Assembly (NCBI GenBank): GCA_017462385.1
Contig: JAFTRE010000011.1
Span: forward strand, 24,391-88,390
DNA length: 64,000 bases
Source: Clostridia bacterium
GTDB taxonomy: Bacteria; Bacillota; Clostridia; Oscillospirales; CAG-272
Direction of reading: 5' to 3'
Translations under genes and position numbers: made by a program
Shown: piece by piece, positions 5,860 to 48,789 of the stretch
Numbering within the stretch: the first letter of the stretch is position 1
Layout: each line of letters opens with the position of its first letter
Notes under the pieces: model-generated
The model's input: only the letters and a program-made list of their open reading frames with translations
Databases searched by the model: none
Told to the model about the DNA's origin: nothing

Positions 5860-6123
5860 CTGGCATCCGCCTCTCTGATAAAATTTACTTGTTAATTATA
5901 TCATATTATCCGGCGGTTTGTCAACTGTGTTTTCGATTTCCACACATTTTTTTATTATATTGTGTCAGTTTTATGTATTTTTTTCGCAAAGTACGTGCTT
6001 TTGTTGGTTAATATGATAAAATATTCGTATATTTTGACTGTACCTCTTGTTTTATTGTGAATTTTGGTGTATAATGATGGTTGATATTTTTTATTACTTA
6101 TACTTGAGAAGGAGACATGTCCA

Positions 6124-7377
6124 ATGCTCAATGAAAACTTAAAATTTATCGAGGCAATTGACCCCGAGACTGCCGCCGCCATTCGCGCCGAGCACGCTCG
6201 CGAGTCCGCAGGCCTTGAGATGATCGCATCCGAAAACTTTGTTTCCCCCGCGGTGCTTGCCGCCGCAGGAAGCATCATGACCAACAAATATGCCGAGGGA
6301 TACCCCTCCAAGCGCTACTATGGCGGTTGTATGTGTGTTGACGTGGTTGAGGAGCTGGCAAGAAAAAGAGCTTGCGAGCTGTTCGGCGCGGAGCACGCCA
6401 ACGTCCAGCCCCACAGCGGCTCTCAGGCAAACACAGCTGTTTACGTTGCTCTTCTGGAGCACGGCGACACAGTGCTGGGAATGAGCTTGGCACACGGCGG
6501 ACATCTGACCCACGGCAGCCCTGTCAACTTCTCGGGTAAATTTTATAACTTTATTCCTTACGGCGTAAGCTCGTCCGACTTCCGTATCGATTACGACGCT
6601 CTTGAAGCAAAAGCGATCGAGGTTCAACCCAAGATGATCGTAGCGGGCGCATCCGCTTACCCCCGCGTTATCGACTTTGCTCGTCTGCGTGAGATTGCGG
6701 ACAAGGTCGGCGCATATCTGATGGTAGATATGGCTCACATCGCGGGACTTGTTGCGGCAGGACTTCACCCCTCCCCCGTTCCCTACGCTGACGTAGTTAC
6801 CACCACAACTCACAAAACTCTGCGCGGTCCTCGCGGCGGTATGATTCTTTGCAACGATGAAGAAATATACAAGAAGATCAACAAGGCAATCTTCCCCGGC
6901 ATTCAGGGCGGTCCTCTGATGCACATTATCGCCGCAAAGGCAGTTTGCTTCAAGGAGGCAATGCAGCCCGAATTCAAGGCATATCAGGAGCAGGTAGTCA
7001 AGAATGCGGCGGCTCTCGCCGAAGCGCTTGTTGCCGAGGGCTTTGATCTGGTATCCGGTGGCACAGATAACCACCTTATGCTGGTTGACCTGCGCTCTAT
7101 GAACCTGACAGGTAAGGAATTCGAGCACCGTCTCGATGACGTGCACATCACCGTCAACAAGAACGCCATTCCCGACGATCCTCAGTCTCCGTTCATCACC
7201 TCGGGTATCCGCGTAGGTACTCCCGCGCTGACCACTCGCGGCATGAAGGAGCCCGAGATGAAAAAGATCGCTCACCTCTTCGCCCTCACCGCACGCGACT
7301 TTGAGAACAGCGCCGACGCCGTCCGCGCCGAGGTCGCCAAGCTGTGCGAGCAGTTCCCGCTTTATAAGGATATTTAA
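6124..7377 (+). CDS. glyA: serine hydroxymethyltransferase
   Basis: [24 protein letters not shown] and [15 protein letters not shown] (PLP lysine motif). Confidence 0.97.
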
Positions 7378-7390
7378 CCTAATAAAGTTT

Positions 7391-7429
7391 ACCCGACACC
7401 GTAAAATTTATGGTGTCGGGTTTGTTTTT
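7391..7429. terminator. bidirectional terminator between glyA (+) and spoIVA (-)
   Basis: ACCCGACACC-loop-GGTGTCGGGT followed by TTGTTTTT. Confidence 0.8.
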
Positions 7430-7431
7430 AA

Positions 7432-8910
7432 TCAAAGTATAATACAAATAAGTCCGTTACTGCCCTCATTTATAATGCGCTCCAGCGTCTCTGACAGCTT
7501 ATCGCGCGACTCCTCGGGCATATGCTCCAGCTTTGTGTGTAAGCCGTCGTTGACCAGCTCGTAAAGCGTTTTACCGAACATATTGGACTCCCAGATGCGC
7601 TCAGGATCATCCGAAAATTCTTCCAGCATATACTTGACAAGATCCTCGGATTGCTGCTCTGTACCTACGATGGGGCTGATCTCAGTCTCAATATTAGCAC
7701 GTATCATATGCACCGACCGCGCGGACGCACGCAGTCTGACTCCGTAACCGCCCGCTTGCTTGACTATCTCGGGCTGCTCCAGCTTAAGCTCGGAAATATC
7801 GGGCATGACTATGCCGTAGCCCTTATCCTCGGCATCACGCATAGCCTCGGCGACCCGCTCATATTCACCTTTAAGGTTAGCAAAGTCGCGCAGCAGACGT
7901 ATCAGGTCATCCTCGCCGCCGATATCAAAGCCGGTCAGCTCACTGATAACGCTGTAATACAAGCCGTCCTCAAGCGCCACCGCCACGCGGGCACGCCCGT
8001 TTCCGAGGTTTATCTCCTCCACGGTGGTGTCTTTTACATATTCATTTTCGGCAAGGCTTGCAAATGCCTGCTTGATATCACCCGTCTTGGTCACCTTGCC
8101 CGCGCAGTTGCGCACGCTTTCCATAAGCGACAGCTTTACTCGGTGACCGTCCTCCAGTGCCGCTGTCCAATCGGGTAGCTTTATTGTGACCTCGGTCACG
8201 GGAAATTCATGCAGTACCAGCTCCAAGATATGGCGAATGTCCTCAGCGTCAAGATCGAGACAGCTGACAAGCGCCACGGGAACACTGTATTTTGCCTCCA
8301 GCTCGTAAGCCAGCGCTATCGCCTGCTCGGAGGAGGGATTTGACGAATTAAGTATTATCGCGAACGGCTTGCCGAGCGCCTTGAGCTCGTTTACCACCCG
8401 CTCCTCGGCTTCAACATAGCTATCGCGCGAGATCTCGCCGATGCTTCCGTCCGTTGTTACCAGCATGCCGATCGTGCTGTGCTCGGTAATGACCTTGTGC
8501 GTTCCCATTTCTGCCGCCTCGATAAAAGGCACCGCCTCCTCCTGCCAGGGCGTGCGCACCATGCGAGGCTGACCGTTCTCAATGGTACCAAGCGCCTCGG
8601 GAACTATGTAGCCAACGCAGTCTATCATTTTAACGCGAAGTGAAGCGCAGTCGTCGATGACAATGGTGACGGCGTCATCGGGAATAAATTTGGGCTCGGT
8701 CGTCATGACCGTCTTGCCCGCGGCGCTCTGCGGCATTTCGTCGCGGGCGCGGTCGCGAACATAGCCCTCGGTGATATTTGGCAGTACCAGCGCCTCCATA
8801 AAGCGCTTGATAAATGTGGATTTGCCCGTCCTTACAGGTCCCACCACACCGATATAAATATCGCCGCCCGTACGCTCGGCGATATCCTTATAGATCGAAT
8901 GTTCAGACAT
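7432..8910 (-). CDS. spoIVA: stage IV sporulation protein A (spore coat morphogenetic ATPase)
   Basis: N-terminus SIYKDIAERTGGDIYIGVVGPVRTGKSTFIKRFME (Walker A), 492 aa, GGGAGGA SD. Confidence 0.95.
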   Translation of the reverse strand: MSEHSIYKDIAERTGGDIYIGVVGPVRTGKSTFIKRFMEALVLPNITEGYVRDRARDEMPQSAAGKTVMTTEPKFIPDDAVTIVIDDCASLRVKMIDCVGYIVPEALGTIENGQPRMVRTPWQEEAVPFIEAAEMGTHKVITEHSTIGMLVTTDGSIGEISRDSYVEAEERVVNELKALGKPFAIILNSSNPSSEQAIALAYELEAKYSVPVALVSCLDLDAEDIRHILELVLHEFPVTEVTIKLPDWTAALEDGHRVKLSLMESVRNCAGKVTKTGDIKQAFASLAENEYVKDTTVEEINLGNGRARVAVALEDGLYYSVISELTGFDIGGEDDLIRLLRDFANLKGEYERVAEAMRDAEDKGYGIVMPDISELKLEQPEIVKQAGGYGVRLRASARSVHMIRANIETEISPIVGTEQQSEDLVKYMLEEFSDDPERIWESNMFGKTLYELVNDGLHTKLEHMPEESRDKLSETLERIINEGSNGLICIIL

Positions 8911-24313: not shown

Positions 24314-24628
24314 ATGAACGCTTACTACAACGATTTTGTCGCTACCAATGCCGCTCCCGCGGTCCGTACCAAATCCGCGCCGCGCCGTCGGACTTCTCTC
24401 TCTGCGCTCATTGAGCGCCTGCTGTGCATGATAGACGCCCTGCTGGCTCTGCTGTCCTCCACCAAGGCGCGCCGCGTTGCCCTGGTCGCCTCCACCACAG
24501 CTTGCTTCTTTGTTATGCTGGGCGTTATCGGCGGAATCGAGCACGGACTCATCGGCTGGGGCTGGGGCTTCGCCATCGCAATGGTCATCGCTATCATCGA
24601 GGGTGTGTGCATTAAAAAGTGTAAATAA
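24314..24628 (+). CDS. small membrane protein, unknown function (104 aa)
   Basis: AAGGAGAA SD. Start trimmed to MNAYYNDF. Basic stretch, then two hydrophobic helices (ACFFVMLGVIGGI and GWGWGFAIAMVIAIIEGV). Confidence 0.55.
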   Translation: MNAYYNDFVATNAAPAVRTKSAPRRRTSLSALIERLLCMIDALLALLSSTKARRVALVASTTACFFVMLGVIGGIEHGLIGWGWGFAIAMVIAIIEGVCIKKCK

Positions 24629-39184: not shown

Positions 39185-40129
39185 ATGTACGAAACTATAG
39201 TCGCGGAGCCTTCCGCAAAAATATCTTTTGCTCCCATAACCGCTGCGGACAAGCCGACCTTTGAGCAATATCTTGCCGGCGAGAGTGAGCGCGGGTGCGA
39301 ATTTTCCTTTGCCAACCTATATCTGTGGGGTCGGCAAAATTGGGCTGTACTGCACGGCCATATTGTAATGTTCTCGCAATTCGACCGCCGCAGTATATAT
39401 CCCTACCCTATCGGTCAAAGTGACAAAAAAGCCGTACTTGACGCCATTATTGCCGACGCTCGTGAGCGCGGAATATCCTGCCGCATCACGGGACTCGGCC
39501 CCACCGCCAAGCAAACACTGCAAGAGCTCTACCCCGGCAAATTTCGTTTTTACTGCGATCGAGATTCATTTGACTACGTCTATTCCATTGACGATCTTGC
39601 AGATCTCAAGGGCAAAAAATATCATCGCAAGCGCAATCATGTCAACGGCTTTGTGAGCGCTTTCCCGAACTATTCGGTTGAGTCGCTGGACGAGCAAAAT
39701 CTACCCTCCGTTCGGCAAATGGTAGACAAATGGTATCAAGAACGGATCGCCGCAGACCCCACCGCCGATTTTCATCTTGAACAGTCGGCGCTCTCGCGGG
39801 CGTTCCGCCATTACCGTGAGCTTGAAATGGAAGGACTGGTCCTGCTCTCGGACGGCGAGGTTCTCGCGGTAACACTCGGAAGCCAAATGTCCGCGGACAC
39901 ATTCGACGTGCATTTTGAAAAGGCACGCCCCGATGCGAACGGTGCTTATGCAGCCATAAACTATGAATTCGCCCGCCATATCCGCGCCAAATACCCCCAT
40001 ATAAAATTCCTCGACCGCGAGGAGGACATGGGACTCGAAGGTCTGCGAAAAGCAAAACAAAGCTACTATCCGCATCACATGGTGGAGAAATGCTGGGCTC
40101 GGCTTGCGGAGGACGACGATGATTATTGA
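39185..40129 (+). CDS. DUF2156 domain protein (stand-alone MprF C-terminal-like, GNAT-fold)
   Basis: CEFSFANLYLWG, KGKKYHRKRNHVN and FLDREEDMGLEGLRKAK resemble the DUF2156 / lysyl-PG synthase C-terminal family. Confidence 0.7.
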   Translation: MYETIVAEPSAKISFAPITAADKPTFEQYLAGESERGCEFSFANLYLWGRQNWAVLHGHIVMFSQFDRRSIYPYPIGQSDKKAVLDAIIADARERGISCRITGLGPTAKQTLQELYPGKFRFYCDRDSFDYVYSIDDLADLKGKKYHRKRNHVNGFVSAFPNYSVESLDEQNLPSVRQMVDKWYQERIAADPTADFHLEQSALSRAFRHYRELEMEGLVLLSDGEVLAVTLGSQMSADTFDVHFEKARPDANGAYAAINYEFARHIRAKYPHIKFLDREEDMGLEGLRKAKQSYYPHHMVEKCWARLAEDDDDY

Positions 40130-40880
40130 TACGCCAAAGCAGGACAGCATCCCTGCCCTGCGCGCGCTGTGGCAGGAGTCGTTCGGTGACACGGACACAT
40201 TTCTCGACACCTTTTATGCTACCGCATACGCCCCCAAGCGCTGCCGCTGTGTATATGCGGACGGCAAGGTAGTAGCGGCGCTTTATTGGTTTAACTGCCT
40301 GCACGAGGGACATCGCATAGCCTATATTTATGCCGTAGCAACCGCCATGTCTCACCGTGGCCGCGGGCTGTGCTCCGCTCTGATGCACGACACGCATCAG
40401 CACTTGACCGACCTCGGCTATGCGGGTGCAATACTTGTCCCCGGGAGTGACCGACTTTTCGATTTTTATCAAAGGCTCGGCTACAATACCAGTTCATACA
40501 TCAGTGCAGTGAAAGCCCAAGCAAGCGATACCTCACTTGTCATACGACCTATCGGCAAGTCGGAATATGCCAAGCTTCGTCGGCGCTATTTGCCGTTAGG
40601 TGGCGTAATACAGGAGGACGAAAACCTCAACTTTCTCGAAACGCAAGCCGCATTGTATGCGGGCGACGGCTTTGTGCTTGCCGCGAACACCGCAAAAGGC
40701 GAGCTTCACGGAGTTGAACTGTTGGGTAAGACCGATGCGGCCGGCGCTATCGTGTCCGCGCTGGGCTGCTCCGTCGGTAGTTTCCGAACAGCGGGCAACG
40801 AACGTCGCTTTGCCATGTATATTCCACTCGGCGACAGTACGCTTGCCCCTCCCAACTATTTCGGACTTGCTTTTGATTAA
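40119..40880 (+). CDS. GNAT family N-acetyltransferase
   Basis: IYAVATAMSHRGRGLCSALM (R-x-x-G-x-G/A motif). Start trimmed to MIIDTPK. 11-nt overlap with the upstream gene. Confidence 0.75.
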   Translation: MIIDTPKQDSIPALRALWQESFGDTDTFLDTFYATAYAPKRCRCVYADGKVVAALYWFNCLHEGHRIAYIYAVATAMSHRGRGLCSALMHDTHQHLTDLGYAGAILVPGSDRLFDFYQRLGYNTSSYISAVKAQASDTSLVIRPIGKSEYAKLRRRYLPLGGVIQEDENLNFLETQAALYAGDGFVLAANTAKGELHGVELLGKTDAAGAIVSALGCSVGSFRTAGNERRFAMYIPLGDSTLAPPNYFGLAFD

Positions 40881-40918
40881 AATAAAGGTTCACACATATG
40901 TGTGAACCTTTATTTTAA
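40877..40918. terminator. bidirectional terminator (42-nt perfect palindrome)
   Basis: TTAAAATAAAGGTTCACACATATGTGTGAACCTTTATTTTAA. Confidence 0.8.
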
Positions 40919-41361
40919 TCAAGACGCCTCAGCACATCTACCATATCCGCGCTCTCGCCCGCGACATCGGCAACGCTGATGCGCGCAAGCTTTGTAGCAA
41001 CGCCGTCATTGATGCGGCAGAAAATATGATAAAGTATGCATTCGCTTTTGTCCACGCCCTCTCGGGAGCATTTATGCGAATCGTCTATACATTTGGAAAT
41101 TGCAAGCGGCCCGTCGATAAGCTCGATTATATCTCGCAAAGTGATCTGCTCTGCCGCACAAGCCAGCGCATATCCGCCGTTCGCACCCTTATATGAACGT
41201 ACGATACCGCCGGTCACCAGCTTATGCAGTATTTTAAGCGTAAAACGGGCGCTGACTGATGTCCGTTCGGCAATCTCAGCCGCGCTCTCGCGCTCTTCCC
41301 CGCTCTGCGCCAGCATGCAGGCAATGCGCAGGGCGTAATCCGCCTCCTGTGTTATTCTCAT
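40915..41361 (-). CDS. Rrf2 family transcriptional regulator (three clustered Cys)
   Basis: MRITQEADYALRI...RFTLKILHKLVTGGIVRSYKGANGGY wHTH. C-x7-C-x10-C (KCIDDSHKCSREGVDKSEC). Start trimmed to the ATG after GGAGG. Confidence 0.85.
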   Translation of the reverse strand: MRITQEADYALRIACMLAQSGEERESAAEIAERTSVSARFTLKILHKLVTGGIVRSYKGANGGYALACAAEQITLRDIIELIDGPLAISKCIDDSHKCSREGVDKSECILYHIFCRINDGVATKLARISVADVAGESADMVDVLRRLD

Positions 41362-41380
41362 GGCAACCTCCAAAAATATT

Positions 41381-43603
41381 TTATGACAGCTCGCCGTTAC
41401 AGCGTATTGTGATTATGAAATCGGGCTTTATCTCGGAGATAAGCTCGTCGCTTATGGTGAACTCATCCTCGCGCAGAACTATCATTTTACTGAAATGCTC
41501 CGCCATATTATCAAGCATCTCGGTGCCATAGGCATCGCGTGTAACTATTGCAACAGGCAAGGTCGGATCATCCACATAAGAGATGAATGCCTGCGTTATA
41601 TCAAATGCTCCGTCGCCGCTATGCTCAAATCTCGCCTGCGGCTGGTACAGACGCTGCAGTGTCAGATATTCTTCAACAATGACCGCGCCATCAAGTCCGA
41701 GGCGGGTAACAAGCTCGCCGCCGACATTATACTCGGATACCGCCATAAAGTCCACCAGCTCATGCACATTGACAGAGCTGAATTTTTCCGATATTTCCGT
41801 CATAAGCGAATGATATCCGACATAAGCCCCGAAGCCCGTCCACAACATATCTGTCTGGCTGTAAAGACGCTCCATGATGGTATGGGTTCTCATTTCAGCT
41901 GTCAAGTCTATTACCGACATCCCCGCACTCTCGCGCACCCCTCTGACTATATCGCGATACTGATTGATAGTCGGCAACAGCTTGCGTAGCGCCTCAGGCG
42001 CGTCATCGGAATATACCGCCAGCTTATCGGGTACTATAAGGTAAAGATACTCGGTGTCACGCCCCGTCAACTCCTTGACGCGGCTTATTTTTTGCTCAAG
42101 TCCCTCGCGAACGGCAAGTATTTGGTCGTCGCTGAGAAAGCTGAGCCACGAATAATCTGCTGAATAAAGCTCGGAATTATGCCCGACGGCAACCGTTTTA
42201 TCCTTTGCGTCGGGGTCACTTCGCAACACAAGCTCGATCGGCTCACTTACAAGCTTATCGTCCGCTTGCGCGGTTATACTGACATTGACAGCCCTTTTGT
42301 CTCCCAGATCAACCGAAATGAAGAAAAGTTCTCCTATCGCCCGCTCTGTTTTTATTATTTGGCCGTCAACTCTGACCGTCATAAGCGCGTCCGACTCGGT
42401 CTCACCCGCTATACAAACGGTATGAGAATCTATCGAGCACTGCGAAATAAGAAGCGGCGGCGAAGTGATGGTATCATCGATACTCAGTTCCAAACCCGCG
42501 TTATATGTCAGCAGTGTGTTTGAGTCGAGCAGATCATAAAGCTCATACTCATGAATGAATTGCACCACAACGGACGGCTGAAGATTATCCATTGTCAGTC
42601 CGCTGAACTGGTGATTGTTCTTATATGTAACCTCGGAATAGGTGTTGGAGAAATAGGGCATGAGTAATATGCGATCCCAATCGTTGGTAAACTCAAGTAA
42701 TACGACATCATCACTTTCGGTCGTGTATTCCTCGGTTACAGAGGTGCGCACCATAGTACCGTAATAGCTCGAAACGGTATATTTTGTCTGCGCACTGTTG
42801 GAAAGCGATACAGTCTCGTTGAGAATGATGGATTCAAGCCCTGCGCGACGGGCAAGCTCCTTGCCGTCGGTACTGCGGGTATAAAGATCCAGCGAGGATA
42901 CACCCACAAGGCTTCCATTGATGCCGTACATCTGCTCCAGCTTTTCTCTTACGCCGTCATAAAGATACCATTCGCCAAGCGAATTGAGCGAATTTTCGGT
43001 ATTGTTGTAAAGCAACTTACCGTATGTTTTGGCGGTAAGCATCAGATCTGTGGTGTCATAAAAATAGTCGTATCCCTCGCCCTCGAGATAATCCGAAAGC
43101 TGGGAGAGGCGTGTATTTTCGCTCAGCTCGCCCATATAATACGGCATAAGCTCGCTGTAAACCGTTTGCGAGTTTGGAATGACCACCATAAGATAATCAA
43201 CGCCGAGATTTTTATATGCCAGCCGACGCAAGCTGAGTATATTTGCGAACGCAGTCAGCTCACTTTCCGAAAAACGGGAATCACCGATATAGTCGCGCAG
43301 ATAATTGTATCCGCCGTCCGTCTCACCCGCGTCAAACAGAAAACCGTTGTCTCCGAGTATTATATCCGAGCTTCCTATACTTCGGAAAAGCAGATATTCA
43401 ATGTTATCGGTGAGCTCGAGCAGCTGTTCATTTTCGTAAAAAGCATCCGAAAAGGCATTGAAGGTCATCTCGTCTGCAACGGAATTCTCGGAAACGGTAT
43501 CGTTACCTGTCAATGCGGCTATTCCAAAGTAAAATGTAAATGTCAAAATAATACCGGCGAATAGCGCCGCACAAACGACGTTTATCGGCTTTGAACGGGA
43601 CAT
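41381..43603 (-). CDS. tandem-duplicated DHHW/AlgX-AlgJ-like extracytoplasmic protein (MBOAT partner), N-terminal TM anchor
   Basis: TM at aa 8-30. Module 1 is about aa 40-375 (GDNGFLF, LMVVIPNSQTVYSE, LYNNTENSLNSLGEWYLY). A beta-rich insert follows at about aa 385-465. Module 2 is about aa 470-740 (LYLIVPDKLAVYSD, LYSQTDMLWTGFGAYVGY, IKPDFII). Confidence 0.65.
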   Translation of the reverse strand: MSRSKPINVVCAALFAGIILTFTFYFGIAALTGNDTVSENSVADEMTFNAFSDAFYENEQLLELTDNIEYLLFRSIGSSDIILGDNGFLFDAGETDGGYNYLRDYIGDSRFSESELTAFANILSLRRLAYKNLGVDYLMVVIPNSQTVYSELMPYYMGELSENTRLSQLSDYLEGEGYDYFYDTTDLMLTAKTYGKLLYNNTENSLNSLGEWYLYDGVREKLEQMYGINGSLVGVSSLDLYTRSTDGKELARRAGLESIILNETVSLSNSAQTKYTVSSYYGTMVRTSVTEEYTTESDDVVLLEFTNDWDRILLMPYFSNTYSEVTYKNNHQFSGLTMDNLQPSVVVQFIHEYELYDLLDSNTLLTYNAGLELSIDDTITSPPLLISQCSIDSHTVCIAGETESDALMTVRVDGQIIKTERAIGELFFISVDLGDKRAVNVSITAQADDKLVSEPIELVLRSDPDAKDKTVAVGHNSELYSADYSWLSFLSDDQILAVREGLEQKISRVKELTGRDTEYLYLIVPDKLAVYSDDAPEALRKLLPTINQYRDIVRGVRESAGMSVIDLTAEMRTHTIMERLYSQTDMLWTGFGAYVGYHSLMTEISEKFSSVNVHELVDFMAVSEYNVGGELVTRLGLDGAVIVEEYLTLQRLYQPQARFEHSGDGAFDITQAFISYVDDPTLPVAIVTRDAYGTEMLDNMAEHFSKMIVLREDEFTISDELISEIKPDFIITIRCNGELS

Positions 43604-43615
43604 TTGACACCCTCC

Positions 43616-45013
43616 TTAGAATACAAAATATTTAAATGCCTGCATCGCAGACTGCGGATACTGCGGCATATAATATACCAACGTAAACACAAATATCGCA
43701 AGCAAAAGCAATGTGCCCACGCACTCGGCGATCGGGCGCAGACGCTGCGGCAATTTGTTGAGTATGGCGTCGCCGCAGCAGATAAGCGGTGAAAACAGCA
43801 GCGCCGCTATCGCCGTGACGATATATTCACCGCCCGACATAACTATGTAAACGTAATAAATATGATAATCATCCACCGATGACGAGACGGCGTTGATCAG
43901 CGAGGTAAAATCGCCAAGCGACGCCGACAGGCCCGCTGTCCAGAAGATGGACATAAGTAAAAATGTCAGGAAAAATCCGATTGGACGCAACAGCTTACTG
44001 TCCTTGAGCAGCTGCTCCGCGCCCGACACTGACAAAATGAACATGATTGCCGCAACTATCAGCGCCATAATAAGCATTGTCAGCGAAAAACGCACCCACA
44101 GTGCGATCAACACCACCGTCAGCGATGACGCTATCGCACTGCCGACCTTTCGGCGGGACAACGAAGTCACACGAAGCAACGGAGAGACGATATAATCGTC
44201 CAGCCAATCTCCCAGTCCCACGAAAATGCGGCTGAAATACCGCGCGGGAGAATATGCCCACAGCGCTCCGCTGACATCGCGCGGCAGTGATATACCGAAC
44301 ATACGTGCAATACCGACACCCATATCCGCCCAGCCGGCGAAAGCAAAATACGCCGCCAGAAAAACAGCCACTGCAGCAAACATTCCGAACCCGATATCGG
44401 GGGCTCGATCACTCGTCTCGATTATCAGCTCGTATGCCTCGAGCATGACCGCAGCTATAGCCAGCCGCTCAATAACGCCCACCGCAAACAGCTTGACGCC
44501 GCTCGCAAATTCGTTGACGTTATAATGCATGGAATCTATGTATTTTACGAAATCCTTATATTTTATGACAGGTCCCGCTGCCATGACCGGGAAAAACATT
44601 ATGTAAAGCAGTGTATCGTCGATGCGAGCAGGCTCGGCATCGCGCCGCGCGATATCAATGACATAAGAGACGCAGCTGAGCAACCATATTGCCCCGCCGA
44701 GCGGGAATGAGAACAGCTCGCCTCTGTCATCAAGCACGCGGAATACAAAAAACAGCGTTATAGCCACAGCGCCCGCAATAATGCCCACATATTTAAAGCT
44801 CGTCCGCGCCGCAAAACGCCCCGCAAAATACGTCGCTATCGACAGCGCCAACAGTATAACTATAGACAGCGGGGCATTGAGATTTGCAAGCATATAAAAC
44901 ACCGCCGAAATGACCAGCAACAACGAGCGCCTATATCGCTGAGGTGTCAGATAAAATGCCGCAAGCGAAACGGGCAAAAACAAAAACATAAACGCCGCCG
45001 ACGCAAAAAGCAT
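43616..45013 (-). CDS. MBOAT family O-acyltransferase (AlgI/DltB/PatA-like)
   Basis: Polytopic. MLFASAAFMFLFLPV N-terminus is typical of AlgI/DltB. Start trimmed to the ATG 8 nt after GGGAGG. Confidence 0.88.
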   Translation of the reverse strand: MLFASAAFMFLFLPVSLAAFYLTPQRYRRSLLLVISAVFYMLANLNAPLSIVILLALSIATYFAGRFAARTSFKYVGIIAGAVAITLFFVFRVLDDRGELFSFPLGGAIWLLSCVSYVIDIARRDAEPARIDDTLLYIMFFPVMAAGPVIKYKDFVKYIDSMHYNVNEFASGVKLFAVGVIERLAIAAVMLEAYELIIETSDRAPDIGFGMFAAVAVFLAAYFAFAGWADMGVGIARMFGISLPRDVSGALWAYSPARYFSRIFVGLGDWLDDYIVSPLLRVTSLSRRKVGSAIASSLTVVLIALWVRFSLTMLIMALIVAAIMFILSVSGAEQLLKDSKLLRPIGFFLTFLLMSIFWTAGLSASLGDFTSLINAVSSSVDDYHIYYVYIVMSGGEYIVTAIAALLFSPLICCGDAILNKLPQRLRPIAECVGTLLLLAIFVFTLVYYMPQYPQSAMQAFKYFVF

Positions 45014-45045
45014 ATGAACACCTCCCATAAATATCATTATATATT

Positions 45046-45093: not shown

Positions 45094-45474
45094 TCAGACC
45101 TCATTTTTCCTTATCACCTCATAAAGCCGCTTGACATATTTCAAATGCCTGTATATCGTTCTTTCGTCACAATGCAGCTCATAAGCAAGGCGGCGAATGC
45201 GAAATGTCACATCATTTCGACGTGGACGGCGCCCCGCGCCGAGAAAATATACCCTTCGTATAGCCGCAATGCACTCCTCCTTCTCCGATGCTCTCAGCAG
45301 ACGTAATGTATCATACACCGCCAGCATATCCAATGTCATCGCCTCCGATGCGCACATGCCGCGTATGCAGTCATACGCCTCATACACTGTCAAGCATCGC
45401 CGATCAAGCCCGAGCAAGGCATAACGCCGAAAGGCGACCGCGGCATCCGAGACACGCCCATATCTTTGTGACAT
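45094..45474 (-). CDS. small HTH protein resembling sigma-70 region 4
   Basis: C-terminal RIRRLAYELHCDERTIYRHLKYVKRLYEVI looks like a region 4.2 HTH. Start trimmed to MSQRYG. Confidence 0.45.
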   Translation of the reverse strand: MSQRYGRVSDAAVAFRRYALLGLDRRCLTVYEAYDCIRGMCASEAMTLDMLAVYDTLRLLRASEKEECIAAIRRVYFLGAGRRPRRNDVTFRIRRLAYELHCDERTIYRHLKYVKRLYEVIRKNEV

Positions 45475-45591
45475 TACACTTCCTCCTTGAGTTTTTATAA
45501 CAACATTATAGAACATTTGTTCGACTTTGTCAAGAGTCAAAACAGCCAATGCGAGCAATATGCACAAGTTGCAAAATTGTACATAAACATA

Positions 45592-45932: not shown

Positions 45933-45978
45933 AAAACATTTTGCCCGCTGACTTTGGTCAGCGGGCAAAATGTTTTTT
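45933..45978. terminator. bidirectional terminator (20-bp stem)
   Basis: AAAACATTTTGCCCGCTGAC-TTTG-GTCAGCGGGCAAAATGTTTT followed by TT. Confidence 0.85.
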
Positions 45979-45990
45979 GCTTATCTTAAA

Positions 45991-48642
45991 TCAGTCTTCT
46001 TTTTTCTTAAATGTCATGCATGCCGCTATACCGATAACGGCAATAACGCCCACAAATGCGGTAACACTGCCGCCGCAGCCACCGTTAGTTTCGGAAGGCT
46101 CGGTTGTAGTGGGATCATCGCTCACGGGAGTCGTAGTAGTTACGTCAGGGGTGTCGGGCACGGTATCGGGAGCAGATGTATCGGTGTCGGGAGCCGAGGT
46201 TTCGGTCTCCTTATCCAGCAACGACTCGCCGCCGTAGAACACCTCCAGTTCGGAACGGATATACTTGGTTATGATATCATAACCTGCTCCGTTGGGGTGA
46301 AGCGTATCGGGCAAATACTTGGTGGTAGTAGTAACGAGCTGATCGTTAAGCTCCTCGTTATCATACAGGTTGATATAGTGAACTCCGTACTTCTCGCAGA
46401 TCTGAGCCGCAAGGTCAAAGTAAGCACTCATATCCTGTGCGCTTCCCTTATTGTGACCGTCAAGATGGAAGTTGGAGATATAGAACAGGTCTGCCTTGGG
46501 ATACAGTTTCTTAGCAGTCGTGAAAATGTTCTCCAGACCGCCACCAAAAGTGGTAATATCAAATGTGGTGGTTCCCTCTGCGGTCATGACTCCGACGGGA
46601 ACAGTGTAGCGCGCATCGTTTACACCGCCGTGCATAACGATCATATCATAGTCCTTATCTTTTGATGCCAATGCGTTAAATATGTAACCTGAATCGCCCG
46701 TGTTGGAAATACGCGCGCCGCTATCGCCGTTATTGACAACAGTCATGCCGGTCTGTGCACCGATACGGCCTGCCCAGCTGAAGTAGAAGCCGCCGTCCTC
46801 GCCTGCACCGAAAGTGATCGAGTCACCGATAAACAGCGCCTTTTTGCCGGTCAGCTTACTTGTGGTATCGATTTCGGGAACAGTGATATTGAACATTTCC
46901 ATGTACTCCGCCTTGGTGGGCGCCTTGTTCTTGGAAATGAATGCGTATTCGGTCAGTGCGGCACGGAAGATGAATCTTACATAAGCGACTCCATTGGGTA
47001 CGGTGTAGCACAGCATACCTACGTTGTCACTGATAAGAAACTCTGTTTTAAAGTTTGCAGAGGACAGATTTGCAATACCCGCGCGATTGGCGTCATAAGT
47101 AGCGCCGAGAGTGGGCTGGGGAACGTGCAGAGCGGAAACATACAGCTTATCGCCCTCCTTTACGGGGATATAAGCGGTGCAATCGTAGGTAGCATTGGTG
47201 CTGACACTGCTCTTGTTTGCAAAGCCGCCGTAAATACCCGTAGCCGCGTTCCAGATATTGTCGCCGTCGGCTACAGAGCCTACATACCACTCGTTATAAG
47301 CGAGTGCGTCAAACTTCTGACCGTTTGTAACAAGCATATAATCCTTGTTATCGACCGAAGCGTTAACGCGAATATAAGAGACGCCGGAGGGAACGGTATA
47401 GGCAAGTATTACCTGCTTACTCTCGAATTCACCGGCAACCGTCAGCTCGGACACCTTGACCTCACCCGAAACATCTCCCGAGGTGGTATAGGTTGCAAGG
47501 GCGGGAGCGGTCTGGCTCTTATTATAGGGACCCATGTAAATAGTGTCGCCCTCCTTGACCTCTATGCGGGGAGTGTTTACATACTTGTCATCAGCCTTAA
47601 CGCCCTCCGCCGATGCATAGCCCTCAACGGTATCTTCGGCGGCATAGAGATTGGTGATGGATGTGGAGTCGGTAACATCAAGTGCACCGATAAAGCTGTC
47701 GGGCGACTTGCCCTGTGCGGCACACCAAGCCCGGTAGGTAACACCGTCGAAGGGCTGGTTGACAGTTGCAAGCGCGATGCCAGCCTCATGAACGGGAGTG
47801 GAAACAGTAACACGCACAAAGCCTGTATCGGAGCGCATGCGGTAAGCGTAAATGGTGTAACCGCCGCCAAGCTCCTCATAACGGACAAGATATGCGTCCT
47901 TTACGGTTGTAGTGCCCGTCTTGTTTGCATCGTGAAGCGTGAGGTGATAACCCTGCGATGTATTGGCGATGGCAAAATAGATTATATCGCCGGCCTTTAC
48001 GGGTATGTAGCCTTGAGTACAGTAGTACGAGCCGGAGGAGACCAGCTCACCGCTGACATCCGCACGACCTGCAAATGTACCGCCGGTAGCGTAAACATTG
48101 GTCAGCGCCGCCGCATCAACAGGGGTAGCGCCGCCGATAATGATCGTGGGATCAACATTTTTGGACTTCCAGTATGCGAGATACTCATCGCGGTTGAACG
48201 CCTGGTTCTTTGTAACCAGATAGCATTCTTCAAACATCTGCGAGCCTACGGGGGTAACGCTGCCTACTCCCGCGGGCACGGTGTAACACATAATGACAAG
48301 GTTGGTGTTCTCAAATGCAACGTAAGTATTGGCGTCGGTGACCGAGATCTTATCCTTGACCGCGCCGTTTGCGTCATAAGTTCTCAAATGATAGCCCTGA
48401 GTCGCTACGCAGGGACCGACATATATCTTGTCGCCCTCGGCAACAGGAATGTTCTTACCTGTAACAAAGTTGATGTTTGACTTTACGTCGCCGCCCGCCG
48501 TGGATGTGTTGGGCTCACCGTAGCCGTCAAACTCATAAATGTTGGTAAGTGTGGTTGCGGCACTTGCCGTCAGTGCGAACGCGGGAATGGCGGTCAACAG
48601 CATGACAAGGCAAAGCACCAAAGAAAGCAATTTTGTTTTCAT
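45991..48642 (-). CDS. cell-surface SGNH/GDSL hydrolase with four N-terminal repeats and a C-terminal membrane anchor
   Basis: Start trimmed to MKTKLLSLV (signal peptide ...ALTASA). SGNH blocks are FIGDSITFG, NNGDSG, MHGGVND and DTLHPN. Then a T/P/D-rich linker, then GGCGGS + TM helix + KKKED. Confidence 0.8.
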   Translation of the reverse strand: MKTKLLSLVLCLVMLLTAIPAFALTASAATTLTNIYEFDGYGEPNTSTAGGDVKSNINFVTGKNIPVAEGDKIYVGPCVATQGYHLRTYDANGAVKDKISVTDANTYVAFENTNLVIMCYTVPAGVGSVTPVGSQMFEECYLVTKNQAFNRDEYLAYWKSKNVDPTIIIGGATPVDAAALTNVYATGGTFAGRADVSGELVSSGSYYCTQGYIPVKAGDIIYFAIANTSQGYHLTLHDANKTGTTTVKDAYLVRYEELGGGYTIYAYRMRSDTGFVRVTVSTPVHEAGIALATVNQPFDGVTYRAWCAAQGKSPDSFIGALDVTDSTSITNLYAAEDTVEGYASAEGVKADDKYVNTPRIEVKEGDTIYMGPYNKSQTAPALATYTTSGDVSGEVKVSELTVAGEFESKQVILAYTVPSGVSYIRVNASVDNKDYMLVTNGQKFDALAYNEWYVGSVADGDNIWNAATGIYGGFANKSSVSTNATYDCTAYIPVKEGDKLYVSALHVPQPTLGATYDANRAGIANLSSANFKTEFLISDNVGMLCYTVPNGVAYVRFIFRAALTEYAFISKNKAPTKAEYMEMFNITVPEIDTTSKLTGKKALFIGDSITFGAGEDGGFYFSWAGRIGAQTGMTVVNNGDSGARISNTGDSGYIFNALASKDKDYDMIVMHGGVNDARYTVPVGVMTAEGTTTFDITTFGGGLENIFTTAKKLYPKADLFYISNFHLDGHNKGSAQDMSAYFDLAAQICEKYGVHYINLYDNEELNDQLVTTTTKYLPDTLHPNGAGYDIITKYIRSELEVFYGGESLLDKETETSAPDTDTSAPDTVPDTPDVTTTTPVSDDPTTTEPSETNGGCGGSVTAFVGVIAVIGIAACMTFKKKED
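46894..48552 (-). repeat. four tandem ~125-aa protein repeats inside the SGNH gene
   Basis: Recurrent pattern (I/L)TN(I/V/L)Y ... P(V/I)x(E/A)GDx(I/L)Y ... (Q)GYHL / YDAN ... (C/A)YTVPxGV ... V(T/S)xNQxF ... Y(L/R/N)xW. ORF-track aa about 38-165, 187-313, 336-459 and 468-590. Confidence 0.6.
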
Positions 48643-48789
48643 TAGCTCAAAGTTTCCTTTCAAAAAATTTTACCGCGTATATTATACTACACATTTCGCC
48701 GTTTAGCAATAAGGCCATCAAAATTTATTTAACAAAAAGTCCCATTGCGGAATATACTGTTATAAAAACGACTGTTTTGGAGGCGTAAA

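Follow-up and report, generated by a model that had tools for sequence, protein, structure and literature searches.

What does a bacterial O-acyltransferase pair do once the residues that define its chemistry have gone from both of its partners? The question is raised by a locus of a Clostridia bacterium (GTDB lineage Bacteria; Bacillota; Clostridia; Oscillospirales; CAG-272) on contig JAFTRE010000011.1 of GenBank assembly GCA_017462385.1, of which a stretch of 64,000 nucleotides (positions 24,391 to 88,390 of the forward strand; hereafter the window, with positions counted from its first letter) was analysed. At this locus a gene of the MBOAT family is directly followed by the gene for a 740-amino-acid protein with two AlgJ/AlgX-like modules in tandem. 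Pairs of an MBOAT and an SGNH-like protein are the standard bacterial means of acylating envelope polymers such as alginate, cellulose, peptidoglycan, teichoic acids and secondary cell wall polysaccharides, and the His/Tyr/Ser relay by which they work has been worked out only recently.

In the pair of the window this canonical relay, which leads from the MBOAT His over a C-terminal Tyr to the Ser of the SGNH-like protein, aided there by His and Asp, cannot operate, because the MBOAT is devoid of both histidines and both modules of the tandem protein are devoid of His and Ser. The folds, the gene pairing and the new residues at the active site of module 1 are strongly conserved in the family, and the pair is a member of a deep clade of two-gene modules of gut Clostridia that derives from pairs of MBOAT and AlgJ/DHHW-type O-acyltransferases. 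For the specialist, the concerted and conserved loss of residues in both partners is the surprising point.

Active-site positions of the tandem protein and its MBOAT partner

The tandem protein and its motifs are encoded as follows.

41381..43603, minus strand: gene for the tandem AlgJ/AlgX-like protein, 740 amino acids, identical to P0001 (list of open reading frames (ORFs), Pfam, homologues)
43508..43585, minus strand: N-terminal transmembrane anchor, residues 7-32, a single long helix in the AlphaFold2 model with the hydrophobic sequence INVVCAALFAGIILTFTFYFGIAALT
42488..43381, minus strand: module 1, residues about 75-372, AlgJ fold with rewritten active site (hhalign, AlgJ profile)
43157..43180, minus strand: IPNSQTVY, residues 142-149, replacing PhiPhiPhiPxK, with S145 in place of AlgJ K134
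42983..43012, minus strand: LYNNTENSLN, residues 198-207, replacing (R/K)TDTHW, with E203 at the Asp and S205 at the His position
42677..42688, minus strand: TNDW, residues 306-309, with D308 at the catalytic Ser position (paired with RDAY by hhalign)
42221..42454, minus strand: immunoglobulin (Ig)/FN3-like beta-sandwich insert, residues 384-461, seven strands in the AlphaFold2 model (also Foldseek)
41384..42202, minus strand: module 2, residues 468-740, AlgJ/PatB1-like with the triad secondarily lost (profile alignment, Pfam)
42011..42037, minus strand: IVPDKLAVY, residues 523-531, PhiPhiPhiPxK kept (K527)
41837..41854, minus strand: TDMLWT, residues 584-589, opposite AlgJ D190-T-H192, with D585 and W588 kept and His replaced by L587
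41528..41539, minus strand: RDAY, residues 689-692, opposite the 'KDSF' block of PatB1, with the catalytic Ser replaced by A691

The Pfam family ALGX (PF16822) matches the tandem protein in two stretches (whole protein E 2.7e-15, 57 bits versus a cutoff of 26.5), with E 8e-12 for module 2 and E 0.02 for module 1 when the modules are searched singly, and Pfam DHHW (PF14286) matches module 2 at 1e-4 with 20-22 bits, below the gathering threshold of 25. NCBIfam holds no model for the protein, and a single-sequence phmmer search of the 740 residues against the PDB returned only noise (dynamin, SSAT), so that profiles were required. Each half was aligned with its own family (A4, 46 sequences; A5, 24 sequences), and comparison of the resulting profiles shows modules 1 and 2 to be homologous over 271 columns (hhalign E 2.2e-25, probability 99.7%). 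The AlphaFold2 model, built with 49 homologues (predicted local distance difference test (pLDDT) 87.9, predicted template modelling score (pTM) 0.75), found strong Foldseek matches in the PDB (E 1e-11 to 2e-8) exclusively in AlgJ (4O8V, 1e-11), the DHHW protein 4NZK (6.5e-11), PatB1 (5V8D/E, about 1e-9) and AlgX (7ULA/4KNC, 1e-9 to 2e-8); weaker matches of the insert are to FN3-like or Ig-like domains and to accessory beta-sandwiches of glycosidases, for example 3PE9. The protein is accordingly modelled with the circularly permuted SGNH-like alpha/beta/alpha fold with cap domain, and as an extracytoplasmic protein of type II, held by its predicted N-terminal anchor, and its gene directly follows that of an MBOAT.

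The reference for the active site is AlgJ, whose catalytic triad is D190/H192/S288 and whose signatures are PhiPhiPhiPxK (K134) and (R/K)TDTHW (W193) (PMC4148444); mutation of the triad and signature residues abolishes alginate acetylation (PMC4148444; PMC9487903). The profile of module 1 matches AlgJ weakly (E 0.053), with TDTHWT opposite T-E203-N-S205-L-N, and the same register is obtained with the AlgJ profile, with hhalign and with alignment A1, which includes the canonical relative P0101. The positions of Asp, His and Ser then read E203, S205 and D308, and the AlgJ motif VPAK pairs with IPNS, so that PhiPhiPhiPxK is absent from module 1. What stands at these positions is hardly variable among 82 family members: P143 is found in 82, Q146 in 72 and T147 in 77, with S or A at position 145 in 75; N200 in 77, N201 in 79, T202 in 81, E203 in 80, S205 in 74 and N207 in 82; E or D at position 308 in 64 (the other residues being T, Q, N and S), W309 in 68 and E352 in 82. 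As read from the alignments, module 1 has an almost invariant polar motif, IPN(S/A)QT, NNTE(N/D)S(L/I)N and (E/D)W, where the old active-site motifs were.

The profile of module 2 matches AlgJ (E 1.2e-11) and PatB1 (E 5e-10) well, and its triad positions Asp, His and Ser read D585, L587 and A691; the signature Lys corresponding to K527 is present in 19 of 27 tandem relatives. The relatives P0093 and P0095-97 have QTDTHWT and RDSY in their module 2, that is, intact triad motifs, and among the tandem proteins QTDTHW was found in 7/27 and Ser at the RDS(Y/F) position in 8/27. Because some tandem relatives hold an intact D-x-H together with Ser, the inactivation of module 2 is secondary. H703 and S705 of 'EHFS' in module 2 were considered as a compensating site and rejected: they are also present in relatives with an intact triad and, as judged from the topology, would lie at the N-terminal end of the next strand, off the active-site face.

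The MBOAT partner and its motifs were located as follows.

43616..45037, minus strand: MBOAT-fold partner gene (Pfam MBOAT PF03062, E 1.7e-9, 37.9 bits versus a cutoff of 27; DltB by profile, E 4e-10; AlphaFold2)
44213..44233, minus strand: SRIFVGL, with F272 (F264 in the numbering of the 465-amino-acid form) at the position of DltB His289
44087..44104, minus strand: ALWVRF, with V315 at the position of DltB H336 and R316 replacing the Gly of 'WHG'
43619..43636, minus strand: C-terminal FKYFVF, a perfect match to the FxYxxF 'acyl shuttle' hexapeptide

The AlphaFold2 model of the MBOAT (pLDDT 84, pTM 0.86) has the multi-helix fold with central funnel of the family and finds DltB first in Foldseek (E 5e-9, TM-score 0.65-0.74), followed by HHAT, PORCN and LPCAT3, and NCBIfam gives only a far sub-threshold match to DltB. 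The invariant catalytic His of MBOAT proteins corresponds to H336 of DltB and H315 of PatA, and a second conserved polar residue to H289 of DltB. A profile built from the clade alone (A3), which avoids a bias from canonical sequences, matches DltB 6BUG (E 4e-10, residues 18-355) with F under His289 and V under the catalytic His336, and alignment with canonical AlgI/PatA/DltB-like proteins sets SRIFVGL of the clade against RRWHxxL and ALWVRF against GLWHGA. At the His289 column, His is present in 1/72 MBOATs of the family, at the H336 column in 0/72 full-length members, and the position next to the latter is K or R in 70/72. A relocated conserved His was not found either, as no column reaches 25% His among the 72 members. 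Many canonical core residues other than His (D128, R131, Y145, D238 and D281-Y282) are kept.

In PatA/PatB and DltB/DltX/DltD, the Tyr of the FxYxxF hexapeptide takes over the acyl group at the MBOAT His and hands it to the SGNH Ser (PMC12148441). In 45/72 MBOATs of the family this Tyr is replaced by D, G, H or F with the hydrophobic frame of the hexapeptide kept, which fits docking retained without a nucleophile. One subclade (L047, L050, L054, L059, L061, L062 and others) has the tail FRDIIF, with Tyr changed to Asp, and in 14/18 of these the partner carries Arg209, which in the single-module partners stands directly after NNTEDSLNS; a salt bridge between tail and cleft may be formed there, a hint from one lineage only.

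The findings agree in large part with the first-pass annotation of this DNA, made by a model from the letters alone. The ORF is real, and the motifs quoted all translate where they had been placed, with the correction that the nucleotide ranges given for TENSLN and TDMLWT cover five of the six residues. The proposed two DHHW/AlgX-type modules around a beta-rich insert were recovered by hhalign, AlphaFold2, Foldseek and Pfam; the loss of His at the DHHW position, read there as TENSLN and TDMLWT, was reproduced by profile alignment to AlgJ and PatB1 and by hhalign, and that of Ser at the D-S-(F/Y) position, read as TNDW and RDAY, by profile alignment to PatB1 and by hhalign. A structural comparison with AlgX, AlgJ and PatB, suggested there as a check, led to these very folds, with 4NZK in addition. 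Only the partner had been misjudged: described as an apparently normal MBOAT, it carries F and V at the two His positions of DltB.

Known systems share the frame of the pair and differ in its centre. As in AlgI/AlgJ/AlgX of Pseudomonas alginate acetylation, the MBOAT gene is followed by that of a membrane-anchored, circularly permuted SGNH-like protein of the ALGX fold and family, and module 2 holds the Lys of PhiPhiPhiPxK as well as the Asp and Trp of (R/K)TDTHW, as does AlgJ. Unlike AlgJ, neither module has the triad's His or Ser, and in module 1 both signatures are rewritten; while AlgJ has one module and AlgX one module and a carbohydrate-binding module, the protein of the window has two modules and an Ig-like spacer, and in contrast to the alginate system its MBOAT has neither histidine, and AlgF-like or polymer-synthesis genes are not nearby. 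PatA1/PatB1 and DHHW-type pairs are Gram-positive and act on wall polysaccharide. With PatA1/PatB1 of Bacillus cereus and the DHHW family (5V8E, 4NZK) the pair shares the combination of MBOAT and DHHW-type protein (TM-score to the target 0.60-0.66) and an alignable serine block, 'KDSF' of PatB1 (S337) corresponding to RDAY of module 2; what sets the pair apart is that other residues stand in place of the DHHW His and of the nucleophilic Ser, and that the Pfam DHHW match stays below its gathering threshold. The MBOAT fold is closest to DltB of DltB/DltX/DltD, with the FKYFVF tail fused as in PatA/AlgI-type proteins, but the DltB/PatA relay lacks its elements here: F and V stand where DltB has His289 and His336, the partner has no acceptor Ser, and the Tyr is often D, G, H or F in the family.

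Extent and evolution of the family

A word-indexed homologue search yielded about 100 clusters for the tandem protein, mostly of 700-790 amino acids and from metagenome-assembled genomes (MAGs) of Clostridia, whose database names are 'hypothetical' or 'AlgX-related' only. In a scan of one genome per species, 80 loci were collected, in which MBOAT and AlgX-like ORFs were found by hidden Markov models and the critical columns read; all 80 are from Clostridia/Eubacteriales/Oscillospiraceae-type MAGs of human and animal guts. The 'NNTENS' module 1 is mostly a single-module protein of 350-450 amino acids (L024-L080), and the tandem form is a subset (L001-L019 and the window). An MBOAT gene stands immediately upstream of the NNTENS-type gene, in the same orientation, in about 73 loci, with gaps mostly below 90 nucleotides and a few predicted ORFs overlapping, and each of these adjoining MBOATs is His-less. 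Whether the tandem, His-less form makes up a clade, as the first-pass annotation had asked, can be answered in part in the affirmative: the tandem proteins are a derived subclade, yet of a larger, mostly single-module family beside His-less MBOATs, and with module 2 intact in some of them.

An exhaustive HMMER search of 1.84 billion representatives gave 13,463 matches at E <= 1e-3 and 1,918 at E <= 1e-30, which marks a very large superfamily. The best 150 matches include four forms: single-module proteins with the canonical motifs KTDTHWN and RDSF, tandem proteins whose C-terminal module is intact and whose N-terminal one is degenerate, NNTENS proteins with one module, and the doubly degenerate type of the window. 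Tandem genes with intact module 2 were seen in six loci, five of them clearly without a nearby MBOAT; in the sixth, L023, the sequence ends upstream of the gene, so that the presence of an MBOAT cannot be judged there. The five are placed as follows.

L022, L028 and L051, about 6000-8000: tandem gene with intact module 2
L021, 5570-7531: tandem gene with intact module 2
L025, 1969-4149: tandem gene with intact module 2

The neighbours at these five loci are a P-type ATPase, a Bac_transf sugar transferase and a YitT protein, and L051 carries two tandem paralogues side by side, one of them with a further degenerate module 1 (LYHTGSDALNE). A number of stand-alone proteins (P0210-P0223, P0245, P0251, P0272 and others) match the Ig-like insert and module 2 only and have intact triads. 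These proteins suggest that the tandem architecture could have come about by gene fusion instead of internal duplication.

The His-less MBOATs form one clade in a neighbour-joining tree (72/72), apart from 16 canonical sequences, and its median pairwise identity of only 28% gives it a depth equal to that of the canonical sample. The pattern suggests that His was lost once, long ago, and that the proteins were then retained for long. Because of this single clade, the association of His-less MBOAT and NNTENS-type partner in 73/73 cases does not represent independent events. Against its closest relative, L001 (77% amino acid identity), the ratio of non-synonymous to synonymous substitution rates (dN/dS) is about 0.08 for module 1, about 0.06 for module 2 and 0.17 for the MBOAT, rough values, as dS is saturated. 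The two 'dead' modules have the lowest dN, with higher values in the transmembrane/linker part and in the insert (0.23, the highest of the ectodomain regions), and the ORFs are intact across about 80 loci that have diverged to 20-35% identity. Both modules and the MBOAT are under purifying selection, with dN/dS about 0.06-0.2. A fold kept, catalytic residues lost and purifying selection together correspond, at the level of sequence, to the pattern of a pseudoenzyme derivative.

Possible functions of the pair

Judged by its alignments, the pair lacks the defining catalytic features of the MBOAT and of the AlgX/DHHW acyltransferase families and, for that reason, should not be filed as an O-acetyltransferase. 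The two readings offered in the first-pass annotation, a pseudoenzyme or an enzyme with a different catalytic solution, are both still live, and its remark that nothing of the kind had been seen described is consistent with the literature searched, in which neither His-less MBOATs of bacteria nor AlgJ-like proteins that lack the triad or occur in tandem were found described.

That the pair was repurposed, without acyl relay, as a non-catalytic binder, scaffold or regulator is the preferred reading, with about an even chance of being right. The two proteins would still form a membrane complex like PatA/PatB or DltB/DltD, which would work without acyl transfer. The cleft of module 1, rich in Asn, Thr, Glu, Ser and Trp, would be the binding site for a glycopolymer of the cell envelope, or for some other ligand, over the opening of the MBOAT funnel, with module 2 and the Ig-like domain extending or orienting the binding surface and adding reach or avidity; as binder, scaffold or regulator, the complex might modulate a canonical acylation or polymer-export system encoded elsewhere. 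A parallel may be seen in HHATL, a eukaryotic MBOAT-fold protein that has lost the catalytic His, is nevertheless conserved and appears to be non-catalytic. The MBOAT of the window likewise has the fold without the catalytic His and is conserved, and a non-catalytic role may be proposed for it by analogy; unlike HHATL, which is not known to have an SGNH-like partner and whose sequence is unrelated beyond the superfamily, here both partners of a bacterial two-component system have lost their catalytic residues together. If a pseudoenzyme, the pair could be the first bacterial MBOAT pseudoenzyme system and a handle on how wall modification is regulated or scaffolded in the abundant, uncultured Clostridia of the gut.

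Several points weigh against a purely non-catalytic role. The near-invariance of the polar set of module 1 and of the K/R beside the former His of the MBOAT (70/72) would be expected of a catalytic site no less than of a binding site, and the spatial clustering of the new module 1 residues is deduced from homology alone. The shuttle Tyr, present in 27/72 MBOATs of the family and in 13/19 tandem loci, is kept in the window's own clade. The neighbourhoods give no functional clue, as the census of 81 loci turned up no third gene conserved next to the pair, and RNA-seq runs with the locus were not found, the runs recovered being of gut-metagenome DNA only.

The main rival, possible though less likely, is an enzyme pair with a new catalytic solution. 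The group that it puts onto a cell-envelope polymer, or the donor from which this group comes, would then differ from the canonical one. R316 in the MBOAT funnel would take the place of His, and S205, flanked by E203 and D/E308, that of Asp-His-Ser, a set reminiscent of Ser-Glu-Asp triads. Fixed polar residues sit at the old catalytic positions and hardly vary (E203 80/82, S205 74/82, N207 and E352 82/82, K/R316 70/72), purifying selection is strong, many canonical non-His residues of the MBOAT core are kept and so is the Tyr of FxYxxF in the window clade and in 27/72 members. Yet most of the family does without the shuttle Tyr (Y to D, G, H or F), the Ser position is variable, with E, D, T, Q, N or S, and a precedent for an MBOAT working without its invariant His was not found in the literature searched. 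The specific proposal that the MBOAT Lys/Arg, together with the cleft of E-x-S, D/E and Trp, catalyses an unknown transmembrane group-transfer or polymer-modification reaction is doubtful. Were a new catalysis true, it would mean a second chemistry for the MBOAT fold, and the AlgJ fold, too, would support a different chemistry.

A sub-case of the pseudoenzyme reading is rather improbable: here the pair would assist, as an accessory subunit without catalysis of its own, a canonical MBOAT/DHHW acetylation machine whose genes lie elsewhere in the genome, in a role resembling that of AlgF, or the division of labour between AlgJ and AlgX, in alginate acetylation. Two SGNH-like proteins with distinct roles do take part in alginate acetylation (PMC4148444), and AlgF is reported to act there as a non-catalytic mediator. 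Tandem relatives with an active-type module 2 exist without an adjacent MBOAT and must, for want of one, receive acyl groups in trans, and canonical relatives of the DHHW type abound in the reference library, with 13,463 representatives at E <= 1e-3. Against such a subunit stands that no canonical MBOAT or AlgX-like gene is present in the 64-kb window, and none is conserved beside the pair in the 80 loci.

That the pair is an ordinary O-acetyltransferase with misaligned residues, or a set of decaying pseudogenes, is essentially excluded, since the points in favour, the weak match of module 1 to AlgJ by sequence alone (E 0.053) and the saturated dS that makes dN/dS rough, are outweighed by three independent alignments that give one register, a clade-only MBOAT profile that puts both DltB His motifs on hydrophobic residues, the absence of any column with >= 25% His in 72 MBOATs, the occurrence of module 2's one well-conserved His, H703 (EHFS), also in relatives whose triad is intact, and intact ORFs in about 80 loci at 20-35% identity with dN lowest in the 'dead' modules. 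For annotation, caution is advised, as such proteins are labelled 'AlgX-related O-acetyltransferase' or 'MBOAT' from domain matches alone.

The likely operon and neighbouring genes

Around the pair, further elements were identified.

45933..45976: bidirectional terminator, a perfect palindrome with a 20-bp stem (pattern match only)
45505..45533, minus strand: sigma-70-type promoter TTGACA-17-TATAAT, 12/12 consensus match (pattern match only)
45094..45474, minus strand: small helix-turn-helix (HTH)-like ORF upstream of the MBOAT gene (weak HTH matches in Pfam)
40915..41373, minus strand: Rrf2-family regulator, 8 nucleotides downstream of the tandem gene (Pfam Rrf2 2.4e-31)

The promoter is likely the start of the operon, and promoter and terminator likely frame a unit of HTH-like ORF, MBOAT, tandem gene and Rrf2 regulator, as the sequence patterns suggest. 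The HTH-like ORF as listed reaches 45567, and its Met at 45474 lies downstream of the promoter; a homologue also precedes the pair in one other locus, L006. The MBOAT probably starts at Met9 at 45013, which gives the 465-amino-acid form (P0102) found in databases, and is preceded there by the Shine-Dalgarno site GGGAGGTG. Its stop lies 12 nucleotides upstream of the start of the tandem gene on the same strand, and a strong Shine-Dalgarno site, AAGGAGG, precedes the latter. The Rrf2 gene is possibly co-transcribed with the tandem gene and follows directly 3' of the pair in four other loci as well (L010, L014, L015, L016); the TTG listed as its start probably lies too far upstream, and Met5 at 41361 is the likelier start.

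In the census of 81 loci, an MBOAT was counted in 73, an AlgX-like gene in 78 and the next cluster in 18. Recurrent neighbours, comprising P-type ATPases, ABC exporters, Rrf2, DUF4153, DUF2975, Bac_transf and YitT, were set aside as lineage synteny. A second MBOAT or AlgX-like gene and Rfam matches were absent from the window, the flanks of which hold an ABC exporter pair, a stand-alone LPG_synthase_C-like protein, GNAT, a ferritin-like protein and an alanine dehydrogenase and are uninformative on function.

Beyond the terminator, at 45991-48663 on the minus strand, an 890-amino-acid protein is encoded whose C-terminal part holds a GDSL/SGNH hydrolase domain (residues 611-797; Pfam Lipase_GDSL_2 7e-21), in which 'GDS' and 'DTLHP' motifs can be seen by eye. 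A hydrophobic segment lies at its N-terminus and a transmembrane helix at its C-terminus, and it also has several repeated beta-rich modules and a Thr/Pro/Asp-rich linker; the strong terminator divides its gene from the operon of the pair, and the gene is not kept beside the pair elsewhere. On the other side, a stand-alone LPG_synthase_C gene (DUF2156-type, Pfam 2.7e-49; 39185-40129, plus strand) overlaps the gene of a GNAT acetyltransferase (40104-40880, plus strand). Both are convergent with the operon of the pair and also flank the pair in L001, which is probably lineage synteny.

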